Shown here one piece after another: positions 46,878-49,678 of a stretch of 54,599 bases of DNA. Numbering within the stretch: the stretch's first letter is position 1; each line of letters opens with the position of its first letter. The position numbers and the translations under genes are program-made. Below the pieces are notes generated by a model, which saw only the letters and a program-made list of their open reading frames with translations, searched no databases and had not been told where the DNA came from. Source of the DNA: Thermoanaerobaculia bacterium (lineage in GTDB: Bacteria > Acidobacteriota > Thermoanaerobaculia > Gp7-AA8); contig JBPPMG010000486.1 of the NCBI GenBank assembly GCA_051305935.1, positions 1-54,599 of the forward strand. Direction: 5' to 3'.

Positions 46878-46987
46878 GATGTGGCGCAGGCACTCCTGCC
46901 TGCGCGCCGGAGGCGGACGAGGATTTGGCACACTTGCTGGTCTGCGGCACGTCGCGCCGCACGGAGACGAGAATGTTCGCGCCGCAC
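46878..46987. repeat. REPIN-like element, copy 3 (right arm decayed)
   Basis: The left arm is identical to copies 1 and 2. The right arm GCGGCACGTCGCGCCGC-ACGGAGACGAGAATGTTCGCGCC aligns to the consensus, differing mostly by transitions. Confidence 0.75.
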
Positions 46988-47015
46988 GAATCTCGTCTAC
47001 CCTGAAGCAATCCCG

Positions 47016-47789
47016 ATGAACCGCGACGACATCGTGGCTTACCTTGCGAGGCTCGGCTGGTCGATACCGACCGCGCCCGATCTCGCCACCCTCGCGGCGC
47101 TTCACGAAGCGCACCTCCTCGTGGTGCCGTTCGAGAACCTGGACATCCACGCGGGGCGCGAGATCGTGCTCGAACCCGATCGCCTTCACGACAAGCTCGT
47201 CGTGAGGAAGCGCGGAGGGTTTTGTTACGAGCTGAACGGTCACTTCGCATCGCTGCTCGCGGGGCTCGGATTCGATCTCGACATGCTCTCGGCGCGCGTC
47301 GCGAATGACGAAGGCGTTCTGGGACCGGCGTTCGACCACATGGCGCTGCTGGTGCGGGCCGGAGGGAATCGATGGCTCGCCGACGTCGGATTCGGCGATT
47401 CGTTCCGCCGCCCCCTCGATCTCGACGATCCGTCGCCGCAATCGGGCGGAGATCCGCTCGGGCGCGCGTGGAGCGTGCGAGACGACGGACACGAGCTTGC
47501 GCTCATGCAGCACGAAGCTGACGGCTCGGCGCGCGTCGCGTACACGTTCACGCTGACCCCGCGCTCCGTCGCCGACTACGCGCCGATGTGCGTCTGGCAG
47601 CAGACCTCGCCCGACTCAGGATTCACTCGCCGTAGAATCTGCAGCCGCGCGACGCCCGAAGGGCGCGTGAGTCTCGCGAACGACCGCCTCATCATGACGA
47701 CGCGGGAAGGCCGGACGGAACGGCTGGTCGCCGAGCACGAACGCGTCGCGGTCCTGATGCGCGAGTTCGGCGTCGCGCTGAGAGTTTGA
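47016..47789 (+). CDS. Arylamine N-acetyltransferase
   Basis: VPFENLD, RGGFCYELN (Cys), DHMALLV (His) and WLADVGFG (Asp) catalytic triad. Start placed at ATG 47016. Confidence 0.95.
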   Translation: MNRDDIVAYLARLGWSIPTAPDLATLAALHEAHLLVVPFENLDIHAGREIVLEPDRLHDKLVVRKRGGFCYELNGHFASLLAGLGFDLDMLSARVANDEGVLGPAFDHMALLVRAGGNRWLADVGFGDSFRRPLDLDDPSPQSGGDPLGRAWSVRDDGHELALMQHEADGSARVAYTFTLTPRSVADYAPMCVWQQTSPDSGFTRRRICSRATPEGRVSLANDRLIMTTREGRTERLVAEHERVAVLMREFGVALRV

Positions 47790-47826
47790 CTCGCGCCGGA
47801 CGGGCAGCCGGGCGCCGCCCGCGCAG

Positions 47827-48313
47827 CTTGTCGCCCTGAGCGAAGCGAAGGGCCTCTCAGGCTTATACCATCGCGCCACGGGCCGAAGCTTGAGACCAAC
47901 CGAGGTATCCTCGAGAAATGGCGAGCGACCGGTGCTACTTCGTCTACATCCTGATGAACGAAGGTGGCACCACGCTATACATCGGTGTCACGAGCAACCT
48001 GCTTCGCAGGGTCGATGAGCACCGTTCGCGTGGAGGCAGCGAGTTCACGCGAGAGTACCGAGTCACCAGGCTCGTGTACTACGAGGAGTTCGGAGATGTG
48101 CGCGAGGCGTTGCTCAGAGAGAAGCAGCTGAAGGGATGGAAGCGTGTGAGGAAGGAAGAGCTGATTCGCGCGGTGAATCCGCATCTGGTCGATCTTGTCG
48201 ACGAGGCCGCACGACGCATGGCGGATGTGCGCTGAGACTGGGGACCCGGGCTGGTTGCCCGTGGCGCGACGGTAGAAGCGTGAGAGGCCCTGCGCTGCGC
48301 TCAGGGCGACAAG
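47827..48313. mobile_element. Candidate element: GIY-YIG gene bounded by 57-bp terminal inverted repeats
   Basis: 47827-47883 and 48257-48313 are reverse complements at 52 of 57 positions. No obvious target duplication. Confidence 0.55.
47918..48235 (+). CDS. Stand-alone GIY-YIG nuclease (UPF0213-like)
   Basis: YFVYIL...LYIGVT.NL.RR..EH, LVYYE.F and REKQLKGWKR..K..LI...NP. Confidence 0.92.
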   Translation: MASDRCYFVYILMNEGGTTLYIGVTSNLLRRVDEHRSRGGSEFTREYRVTRLVYYEEFGDVREALLREKQLKGWKRVRKEELIRAVNPHLVDLVDEAARRMADVR

Positions 48314-48349
48314 ACGTGCGTTTCGCGGACCTCGGGAGGCTCCCCGGTG

Positions 48350-49408
48350 CTACGGAGAAATCCTCTCGACCGTCACGTCCTCATTCGATTCTCCACTTCT
48401 CACCGACGCCAGCATCCCGCAGGCCGCATGCTTCGCGACGCCGCCGGAGTAGCGACGGACGACCGGCGAGCCTAACGCCTGCAGCGCGTCGCGGAATGCC
48501 TCGCGCTCCGCGTCGGTCGCGCGGCGAAAGCCATCGGGGCGCGCGTCGTTCACGTCGATGAGGTTGAAGCGGAGCGGCACGCCGTCGAAGAGGCGCGCCA
48601 GCGCTTCCACCTCGTCCGGGCCGTGGTTCACCCCGCCGAGGAGAACCCACGCGACGGTGACGCGTCCGCCGACAGCGTGCTGGTAGGCACGCACGGCAGC
48701 GGCGACCTCATCGACGCTCCAAGCGCCGCCGGTCGGGATGAGCGAGCGCCGCTTCTCCTCGATCGCGGAAGTGAGCGAGACGATGAGCCGCCACGGGGGA
48801 GGGTCGCTGGCGAGCTTGAGAATCCCCGGAACGAGCCCGACCGTCGAGATCGTGATCGCACTGCCCGAGATCGCGCCGCCGCACGAATGCGAGAGAATCC
48901 GCGCGGCCTTCGTCACGGCGTCGAAGTTGTGAAGCGGCTCGCCCTGTCCCTGGAAGACCGCGCCGCTAACGCGACCCGGCGCCTCGTCGCGCACCGCGAC
49001 GAGCTGCGCGACGATCTCCCAGGCTTCGAGATGCCGCGCGAGCCCGAGCCGTCCCGTCGCGCAGAAGAGGCAACCCATCGCGCATCCCGCCTGGCTCGAG
49101 AGACAAACGCTGAAGCGGTCCTTCTTCTCGAGCGGGATCCGCACTGCTTCGGCGAGCGCCCCGTCGTGAAGCCGAAAGAGGTACTTGACGAAGCCGTCGG
49201 AAGGGTCGGTCGCCCGCTCGAGGATCTCGGGCTTTCTGCGATCGACGAGAGCCCCGATCGCCTCCTCGACGCGCTTCGGCACGGGGCGCGCTTCGGGGAA
49301 ACCGTCGCGCCCGCGCGTGATCGCGTGCGCGAGAATGCGCCGCGCCTCGTCGTCGCGTACTTCGATTCCCTGCCCGCGCAGAAACGACGAGAGGTCGGAG
49401 GGCAGCAT
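48350..49408 (-). CDS. RlmN/Cfr-family radical SAM enzyme, divergent
   Basis: DG..KYLF.L.DG...E.V, CLSSQAGCAMGCLFCATG (CxxxCxxC), TISTVG and AACG.L. Start placed at ATG 49408. Confidence 0.88.
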   Translation of the reverse strand: MLPSDLSSFLRGQGIEVRDDEARRILAHAITRGRDGFPEARPVPKRVEEAIGALVDRRKPEILERATDPSDGFVKYLFRLHDGALAEAVRIPLEKKDRFSVCLSSQAGCAMGCLFCATGRLGLARHLEAWEIVAQLVAVRDEAPGRVSGAVFQGQGEPLHNFDAVTKAARILSHSCGGAISGSAITISTVGLVPGILKLASDPPPWRLIVSLTSAIEEKRRSLIPTGGAWSVDEVAAAVRAYQHAVGGRVTVAWVLLGGVNHGPDEVEALARLFDGVPLRFNLIDVNDARPDGFRRATDAEREAFRDALQALGSPVVRRYSGGVAKHAACGMLASVRSGESNEDVTVERISP

Positions 49409-49511
49409 GCCGAGGAGATGGGGACGGGCGGTCACGGCGAAGGGAAGCGCGGGGGCGGGGCGCGTAATTCCGCGAGCGGTTCTCCGAAAAGGTACTCGCC
49501 AGCGGACACTG

Positions 49512-49615
49512 ATTCTCCATTCCCCATTCTCCATTCGACATTTCGGTTGCCGTAGTTGCACAGAAAACCGAAATGAAGAATGTCGAACGACGAATGGAGA
49601 ATGAAGAAGTGAGAA
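49512..49615. repeat. Inverted pair of degenerate (ATTCTCC)n / (GAATGRA)n heptamer arrays
   Basis: 4 left units and 6 right units around an inner stem CATTTCGGTT/AACCGAAATG. Confidence 0.75.
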
Positions 49616-49678
49616 CCGGCAGATATCCGGCTTCTCTGACCTCCCCGTCCCTCCCGGCGTACAATCGCCTCACCTCGA

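Follow-up and report, generated by a model that had tools for sequence, protein, structure and literature searches.

The closest described counterparts of the locus analysed here are the Ssn nucleases and their hairpin repeats (Chenal et al., Nat Commun 2025, PMC11893778). According to that report, SsnA of N. meningitidis is a 94-residue single-domain GIY-YIG protein, classified in CDD as cd10448 ('GIY-YIG_unchar_3'), whose binding to the NTS hairpin repeat is restricted to single-stranded DNA (ssDNA) and to one strand, with cleavage upstream of the repeat; read from the 37-nt and 28-nt substrates, the cut appears to fall 3 nt 5' of the repeat. Three more homologs are described to cut beside their own repeats (four with biochemistry in all), the homologs tested were inactive on double-stranded DNA, and 42% of the Ssn homologs carried SRM repeats on both flanks. 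The only biological role reported as tested for a family member is the modulation of natural transformation, and the Discussion of the paper likens the NTS-ssnA-NTS arrangement to an insertion sequence (IS), comparing it with IS200/IS605 and with repetitive extragenic palindromic (REP) sequences and bacterial interspersed mosaic elements (BIMEs). Short palindromic repeats with a terminal CGTC or TGTC tag were described earlier as REPs that 'apparently lack a dedicated transposase' (Di Nocera, De Gregorio, Rocco 2013, BMC Genomics 14:522, PMC3733652). Here, a stretch of 54,599 nt ("the window") was analysed, which is contig C197 of genome G000, a 5.6-Mb assembly in 554 contigs from an uncultured member of the Thermoanaerobaculia (Acidobacteriota), and which harbours a gene for a small GIY-YIG nuclease between two inverted, TGTC-tagged hairpin repeats. 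The locus probably represents an Ssn-family nuclease gene placed at the centre of one ~125-150-bp doublet of its cognate hairpin repeat.

A repeat search of the window recovered the two arms as a 64-nt inverted repeat at positions 47820-47883 and 48257-48320, 88% complementary and with 373 nt between them, and the arm core (47827-47883 vs 48257-48313) matched at 52/57 positions (91.2%) when the unit was BLASTed on itself. For the initial 30 nt of the arm, the window contained two matches, one on each strand and with 0 and 2 mismatches, respectively (0.00 occurrences expected from 100 shuffles). The sole sense-strand open reading frame (ORF) lying fully inside the arms (47918-48235, + strand) encodes a 105-residue protein that matched the Pfam GIY-YIG domain PF01541 over residues 6-77 (E 9.5e-17, 61.5 bits); no further domain was found in it, the other Pfam match (T5orf172) being weak, and neither the ORF list nor Pfam revealed a transposase or integrase gene between the arms. 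The left arm (+ strand; nhmmer match 47826-47880, 59 bits) is a repeat copy with the TGTC tag outermost (47829-47832), followed by a hairpin at 47833-47853, GCCCTGAGC-GAA-GCGAAGGGC, which in a DNA fold contains two G.A mismatches around a GCGAAGC mini-hairpin with a GAA loop. The right arm is an inverted copy (- strand; nhmmer match 48260-48313, 47 bits), with the T of its tag at 48311 and its hairpin at 48307-48287, closed by a GCA loop. A -10-like TATCCT (47906-47911) ends 6 nt before the ATG at 47918 and lies inside a small palindrome, CCGAGG..CCTCG (47900-47915, + strand). This anatomy, comprising the 52/57 match of the arms, the single enclosed GIY-YIG ORF, the -10-like box and a TGTC-tagged hairpin in each arm, had been described in a preceding sequence-only reading and was borne out in each of these respects, as was its statement that the window copy lacks a transposase, an integrase and a target duplication. 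Other copies of the repeat in metagenome contigs diverge from the window at 47825-47830, which corresponds to the outer boundary of the left arm.

Based on sequence comparison, the window ORF probably encodes a member of the Ssn family that is associated with a variant repeat. Seven residues (Y10, Y21, G23, R31, H35, E68 and N87) were invariant across 26 homologs of similar length, and we take them to be the GIY-YIG catalytic positions; the nearest solved structures are 1zg2 and 1ywl (UPF0213). The features of an Ssn system are found together at the locus, namely a single GIY-YIG domain of ~94-110 residues with its catalytic residues, inverted flanking hairpins, a directional tag and many genomic copies of the repeat. 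Bifidobacterium pluvialisilvae and Microvirga roseola each carry one small GIY-YIG gene besides uvrC, whose products are 60% and 55% identical, respectively, to the window protein; since both genomes are listed as ssnA- and cd10448-positive (CDD score >100) in Supplementary Data 4 of Chenal et al. (PMC11893778), the window protein can probably be placed in the Ssn/cd10448 family. Its closest homologs (55-61% identity) are found in unrelated phyla (e.g. Bifidobacterium, Chloroflexia and Victivallales).

The arms are part of a dispersed, REP-like family, as the sequence-only reading had supposed, and both the solo and the paired copies that it had envisaged were found. An iterated nhmmer search of the G000 contigs, started from the left arm, yielded 167 arms of this family (family 1) in 96 clusters, 59 of which contained two arms, 32 one, 3 three and 2 four; some of the solo arms lay at contig ends. 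Adjacent arms formed 64 pairs in '+ then -' orientation, 3-74 nt apart, corresponding to palindromic doublets of ~125-150 bp with the TGTC tags always facing outward (the fold of an example doublet reached -48.6 kcal/mol with DNA parameters). The two arms in the window are separated by 379 nt (nhmmer bounds), compared with about 30 nt in the usual doublet, and end 38 and 25 nt from the ends of the gene. Since they extend nearly to the centre of a normal doublet, the gene is located at the apex of one doublet. A second wide family-1 pair, likewise with its tags outward (C260:1826-2828), brackets an 879-nt ORF for an unrelated membrane protein and has a diverged third hairpin nearby.

Family-1 arms were aligned with GTC as the anchor motif, so that the invariance of GTC is by construction; the preceding position (-1) was T in 123/140 anchored arms, and conservation was sharp from this T onward. 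Outside the tag, positions -10 to -4 (e.g. 47819-47826) showed a weak bias (C at -10 in 67%, G at -9 in 56%, and C/G/A at -6 to -4), which could reflect a target preference or the cleavage-site portion of the repeat. The hairpin that follows the tag reads GYCCTGAGC-GNA-GCGAAGGRC, its stem having 9 positions, where two G.A mismatches enclose a mini-hairpin (GCGAAGC or GCGCAGC), and its core is strongly conserved relative to the remaining arm. Mini-hairpins of the GNA type are unusually stable. The second stem pair, scored in 77 canonical short-form arms (of 159), was T:A in 49 cases, C:G in 26 and a mismatch in 2, and thus of Watson-Crick type in 75/77. Hairpins with the same GAGCGNAGCGA core were found in Acidobacteriota, Alphaproteobacteria, Verrucomicrobiota, Chloroflexota, the candidate phyla radiation (CPR) and other groups. 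Among 99 distinct GAGCGNAGCGA-core hairpins from 48/107 loci of other genomes, the stem positions outside the core (u1-u4) were paired in 83-95 sequences, beyond all 500 column shuffles and with 2-3 Watson-Crick types each, and the three tag positions were unpaired; this covariation is support for the stem rather than proof of it, because kin sequences can beat shuffles without any structure.

Altogether, G000 contains four GIY-YIG genes, comprising uvrC and three small ones located in the window, on contig C200 and on contig C121. The product of the C200 paralog is 54% identical to the window protein, and whole elements of a second repeat family lie 94 and 97 nt from the ends of this gene. 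Family 2 comprises 58 loci in G000, consisting of tag and hairpin followed by a TCTGCTAA box, and there is one nuclease gene copy per repeat family in this genome. The region around the C200 gene (C200:20990-21780, L026/L121) contains family-2 doublets as well as short tandem hairpin halves (3-4 stem-end repeats) on both sides. None of the 12 Y1_Tnp genes of G000 (RAYT/IS200-type transposases) was flanked by these repeats on both sides; just one had such a repeat on a single side, a family-2 copy located 233 nt upstream. A tRNA-Met gene immediately precedes the third small paralog (C121:10070-10291, L120; 39% identical), and ~33 nt of the tRNA 3' end are present a second time after the paralog, so that the region resembles an integrated unit of ~400 bp with att-like direct repeats and no integrase. 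At another homolog (L024, G009:C7), the same tRNA end is present three times beside the gene, with a spacing of ~132 nt.

The association of gene and repeat recurs in relatives. A small GIY-YIG homolog was present in 24/41 genomes (G000 and 40 others), and a locus was scored as flanked if inverted repeats were detected at E<1e-3 within 300 nt of the gene. Flanking inverted repeats, predicted for homologs by the sequence-only reading, were obtained for 25 of the 30 loci returned from the relatives, 23 of them tag-plus-hairpin arms by eye and two (L015, L024) of other nature, whereas L003, L004, L016, L021 and L023 showed none within these limits. Eighty further loci were collected from many phyla, of which 79 were evaluable and 41 had flanking inverted repeats. 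At L025, L026 and L012, the gene is flanked by whole rather than split doublets. Hairpins were counted with the pattern GTCRYCCYGAGCGNAGCGARGGRYC, allowing up to 2 mismatches (a reversed control gave 0-1 hits per genome and 0 in G000). At least 10 hairpins were detected in 21 of the 41 genomes, 17 of which carried a homolog, compared with 7 of the 20 genomes with fewer than 10; the tally, which includes the unpublished genome G030 (34 hairpins, no homolog found), is given without a test statistic because kin genomes are not independent.

Hairpin abundance thus tracks the presence of the nuclease gene, and does so more sharply inside the genus, where the window gene occurs in G000 only. G000 itself has 99 family-1 hairpins and 48 copies of the family-2 marker, together with the window gene (family-1 flanks) and the C200 gene (family-2 flanks). 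G001 (97% complete; 13 family-1 hairpins, 1 family-2 marker) and G002 (90% complete; 16 and 0, respectively) yielded no homolog, while G003, with 4 family-1 hairpins and 48 family-2 markers, carries one homolog with family-2 flanks (L025) and one with a family-1 variant. Two alphaproteobacterial Reyranella genomes (G044 with L055, G045 with L047) share exactly the 25-nt hairpin types of G000, a form with a GTCG tag included, in 55 and 131 copies, respectively, mostly as inverted pairs about 60 nt apart; the lower figure belongs to R. massiliensis and the higher one to another Reyranella chromosome (counts with the GTCRYCCYGAGCGNAGCGARGGRYC-type pattern).

The repeat type also follows the protein clade, a co-variation for which the sequence-only reading had proposed a check. 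In a maximum-likelihood tree of 26 proteins, supported groups with a common flanking hairpin were L025 and L026 (family 2; 95/96), L003 and L005 (long-loop hairpin; 97/94), L007 and L030 (94/88), and L009 and L013 (98/89), the latter within a clade of long-loop hairpins (100/98); another clade (93/94) has arms that lack the GTC tag and carry a TTTAT tag instead. The window protein clusters with L002, the arms of both having the unusual GTCG tag, in a five-row clade (98/96). As far as sequences can tell, this match fits co-inheritance and co-evolution of enzyme and site alike.

Compared with the Ssn/SRM systems, the locus shares the ~100-residue single-domain GIY-YIG gene between inverted directional hairpins, the (C/T)GTC tag 5' of the stem, the presence of tens to hundreds of repeat copies per genome and a repeat type that varies with the enzyme. 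It differs in that the hairpins have an invariant GAGCGNAGCGA core and, in G000, a G instead of A/T after GTC, in the organisation of the repeats as REPIN-like doublets, one of which has the gene at its apex, in the presence of two cognate pairs in one genome, and in its lineage, the Thermoanaerobaculia. The published SRM pattern fails on these hairpins because of the GAGCGNAGCGA core and the G after GTC: when checked by hand, the NTS consensus fits the pattern, whereas the stem CCTGAGC violates its V, S and B positions and the G after GTC its W position. The SRM enrichments listed in Supplementary Data 4 of PMC11893778 are 0.85 for B. pluvialisilvae, 1.09 for M. roseola and 0.56 for Reyranella massiliensis, and the 0.56-fold value for a genome in which 55 hairpins were counted here argues that the published pattern overlooks the GAGCGNAGCGA-core class. 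Genomes with hairpins of this class are entered in that table as ssnA-positive but not enriched in SRM.

The systems formed by REPs or REPINs and the REP-associated tyrosine transposases (RAYTs) likewise combine a single-copy nuclease gene with inverted flanking copies of a dispersed hairpin that occurs mostly in inverted doublets, show partly vertical inheritance and have different repeat families for different paralogs. They differ from the present locus in their enzyme, a HUH (Y1) tyrosine transposase rather than a GIY-YIG hydrolase, and in their tag, GTAG rather than TGTC. With the CGTC-tagged REPs, the repeats share the terminal CGTC/TGTC tag on a short palindrome; according to PMC3733652, those REPs have stems of 8-9 bp that begin with two A-T pairs, and their loops measure 4-5 nt, whereas the repeats described here have 9 stem positions and a 3-nt loop, the outermost pair of family 1 being G:C and the second Y:R, and have a candidate cognate enzyme now evident. 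In the hairpins of relatives, these two outer positions are occupied by A:T and T:A. Insertion sequences accompanied by miniature inverted-repeat transposable elements (MITEs) resemble the locus in having terminal inverted repeats around one gene and many short gene-less copies that consist of the two ends; the locus differs from them in that no transposase family and no target-site duplication are present and the copies are old and diverged. Homing endonucleases of the GIY-YIG type (I-TevI or Seg) combine a catalytic with a DNA-binding domain and are sited in introns or between conserved phage genes, whereas here a single-domain protein of 105 residues is encoded at an intergenic site. Literature searches found no publication joining GIY-YIG with repetitive extragenic palindromic sequences or with YhbQ, nothing relevant by title or abstract on GIY-YIG with MITEs or inverted repeats in bacteria, and, from 2025 on, the Chenal paper alone on Ssn/GIY-YIG cutters of ssDNA hairpins.

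The anatomy, copy numbers, gene-repeat association, stem covariation and clade-hairpin match established here can be combined with the strand-specific, ssDNA-specific cutting beside a hairpin that others established for homologs and that the window protein may share by analogy. On this basis, each arm would fold into its TGTC-tagged hairpin with a GCGAAGC or GCGCAGC mini-hairpin whenever the DNA becomes single-stranded, i.e. during replication, repair or DNA uptake. The nuclease would then bind the hairpin on whichever strand has the tag 5' of it and introduce a cut upstream, at a distance of a few nucleotides. Since the two tags point outward, one cut per strand is predicted immediately beyond the ends of the unit; if the cut falls 3 nt 5' of each tag, as may be expected by analogy with N. 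meningitidis SsnA, the span between the two predicted nick sites is 47826-48314. The same binding and cleavage sites would be scattered genome-wide in the form of the solo arms and of the 64 doublets without a gene, and gene and repeats would persist jointly as a long-lived partnership, as do RAYTs with REPINs, with one repeat family per nuclease paralog and with the nuclease activity possibly maintaining or spreading the repeats. The suggestion of the sequence-only reading that the nuclease nicks its own repeats is in line with the cutting of homologs beside their own hairpins, with the restriction that, in the assays reported in PMC11893778, such cutting was confined to ssDNA; its further suggestion of a minimal mobile cassette was not substantiated.

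That cassette would be an autonomous, nuclease-only mobile element in which the whole unit moves, the gene-less doublets being miniature derivatives mobilised in trans, and in which the nuclease nicks both ends in ssDNA while host replication or repair copies and joins the DNA. We regard such an element as possible, if rather doubtful. It would account for the IS-plus-MITE architecture with the gene exactly at the apex of a doublet, and the occurrence of the nearest homologs (55-61%) in unrelated phyla suggests horizontal spread; the cuts predicted by analogy with PMC11893778 would, moreover, fall at the ends of the element. The gene is also absent from the corresponding junction in G002, where a spacer of about 60 nt that contains neither the nuclease gene nor the arms separates the gene for arylamine N-acetyltransferase (NAT) from rlmN, an empty site of the kind that the sequence-only reading had pointed to (in G001 and G003, NAT and rlmN are about 8 kb apart). 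Similarly, the G000 doublet C41:13626-13758 is missing from the matching intergenic region of G003. A base-exact empty site was sought in these comparisons, and only presence or absence can be read from them, the NAT-rlmN spacer of G002 and the doublet-opposite spacers of G003 and G001 being too diverged to align.

A series of observations weighs against mobility and, in part, against the assignment of the locus to an Ssn-repeat pair. Membership of the window protein in the Ssn family rests on a transitive argument via B. pluvialisilvae and M. roseola, and the published SRM pattern matched both flanks at 0/109 loci and any flank at 3/109. Seven genomes have a homolog yet fewer than 10 hairpins of the GAGCGNAGCGA class (mostly with other hairpin types), and hairpins without a detected homolog occur in G023 (55 hairpins; 94% complete), G030 (34), G001 (19 in this count) and G002 (16). 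The gene is single-copy for each family. No excess of target duplications or extended inverted repeats over shuffled pairings was found at the ends of 47 gene-less doublets with clean ends, direct repeats of at least 2 nt being present in 3, compared with 3.2 expected. No two doublets exceed 94.6% identity, with most at 82-88%, so that near-identical copies are missing and ongoing spread is not indicated. Searches of the other repeat copies for remnants of the gene or of its inner flanks gave chance-level matches of at most 24 nt only. A joint skipping the cassette was found in none of the contigs of metagenome runs X1, X2, X3 and X7, which does not show its absence because contigs drop rare variants. 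A strain variant in run X3 lacks 19 nt at 47793, just outside the left arm, and shows 12 differences over 47850-49200 with the cassette kept in place. GIY-YIG enzymes hydrolyse DNA without a covalent intermediate and have no known joining activity, so that the nuclease alone would be unable to join DNA. Synteny gave a mixed picture for the sequence-only reading, which had set a syntenically fixed gene against mobility. L009, L010, L013 and L014 have a common upstream gene, and L010, L013 and L014 a common downstream gene as well (four genera); L018 and L029 share both neighbours, and L007 and L017 one with them (again four genera). These kept neighbours point to vertical inheritance, and the window gene, as described above, is missing in G002. 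The picture is that of an old, largely vertical gene-repeat partnership with occasional gain or loss, much like RAYTs and REPINs.

Vertical retention with kept neighbours in several genera, together with the strongly conserved hairpin core, would also be expected if the system served the host by ssDNA restriction or recombination control, as in Neisseria, where the only role tested for a family member is the modulation of natural transformation (PMC11893778). The hairpins would then mark DNA to be cut when single-stranded, such as transforming or conjugating DNA or replication intermediates, and the repeats near the gene would form part of a network or of an autoregulatory circuit. Taken alone, this explanation appears somewhat unlikely, since it accounts neither for the regular position of the gene between two outward-facing hairpins nor for the separate repeat family of each paralog; in addition, the PADLOC defence models matched 0 families. 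Alternatively, a GIY-YIG gene may have entered the centre of a pre-existing doublet by a homing-type insertion, with the repeats spreading by other means and the arms representing the two halves of the target. GIY-YIG homing endonucleases do exist, and the arms reach nearly to the doublet centre, so that the gene takes the place of the short variable spacer alone; a bare 105-residue catalytic domain without a DNA-binding extension, the occupation of one out of 64 potential targets and the whole doublets that often flank the gene in other genomes (such as those at L025, L026 and L012) nevertheless make such an insertion quite improbable, as does the reported inactivity of the homologs of Chenal et al. 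on double-stranded DNA (PMC11893778). Chance juxtaposition of two independent solo repeats or terminator hairpins with an unrelated small gene could be invoked because solo arms are common (32/96 clusters, some at contig ends) and because arms also bracket the membrane-protein ORF at C260:1826-2828. This hardly deserves credence in view of the recurrence of the arrangement at 25/30 and 41/79 homologous loci, the pairing of a second paralog with a second family and the lack of terminator-like T tracts.

The unit lies between the NAT gene (46881-47789, + strand; PF00797, E 1.5e-59) and a convergent gene for an RlmN-like radical-SAM rRNA methyltransferase (48350-49561, - strand; NF011040, E 1.5e-101), both outside the element. 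No Rfam family was detected at an E value of 1 or less within 47500-48600, the only match in a scan of NCBIfam was sub-threshold (18.6 bits vs a cut-off of 495), and consensus scans returned 0 promoters (no sigma-70 match) and 0 terminators. A GAGGTAnnnY box is located 6-7 nt upstream of the start codon in the window and at L002, L003, L005, L006, L007, L015, L025, L030 and L039 (the last of which is the same place as L002), often inside a CCGAGG..CCTCGG palindrome; together with the -10-like box, it is possibly a promoter for leaderless mRNA or an operator common to this GIY-YIG clade. Between rlmN and a Ser/Thr kinase gene, the window contains another palindromic repeat (49512-49620), which is AT-richer and belongs to a family separate from the TGTC hairpins; it matches dozens of sites on both strands of G003, where it is very abundant, and several in G002 and G001.

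The inference of the sequence-only reading, an architecture analogous to RAYTs and their repeats that is built on a GIY-YIG enzyme, is sound: the pairing recurs, and none of the Y1 genes is doubly flanked. It is not new, however, the resemblance to insertion sequences and the parallel with RAYTs and REPs having been drawn in 2025 in the Discussion of PMC11893778. What is added here is the Thermoanaerobaculia lineage, the GAGCGNAGCGA-core class outside the published pattern, the doublets with a gene at the apex and the two cognate pairs. Hairpins with CGTC/TGTC tags fill the intergenic DNA of many bacteria; they stood without an enzyme in the 2013 report, and the 2025 Ssn paper (PMC11893778) provided a candidate while posing the role outside Neisseria and mobility as open questions. 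G000 offers a clean test case in this regard, with one gene-bearing copy beside 64 gene-less doublets and with congeners that have neither of the two genes and few repeats; specificity is open to partner swapping because a second paralog and a second family are present in the same cell. Each nuclease-repeat pair is, in addition, a possible new site-specific ssDNA cutter for biotechnology. The published SRM pattern overlooks a widespread class of hairpins, so that surveys relying on it undercount these systems. We would put forward only tentatively, as a speculative idea, that Ssn-type GIY-YIG proteins are the missing mobilising enzymes of the CGTC/TGTC REPs and that the hairpin-gene-hairpin unit is an autonomous nuclease-only element, with the gene-less doublets as its non-autonomous copies. 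If this were true, the cross-phylum GAGCGNAGCGA-core class missed by the SRM pattern would make the system far commoner than so far described, and its spread by strand-specific ssDNA nicks at the outer ends, followed by host replication or repair, would amount to transposition without a transposase.

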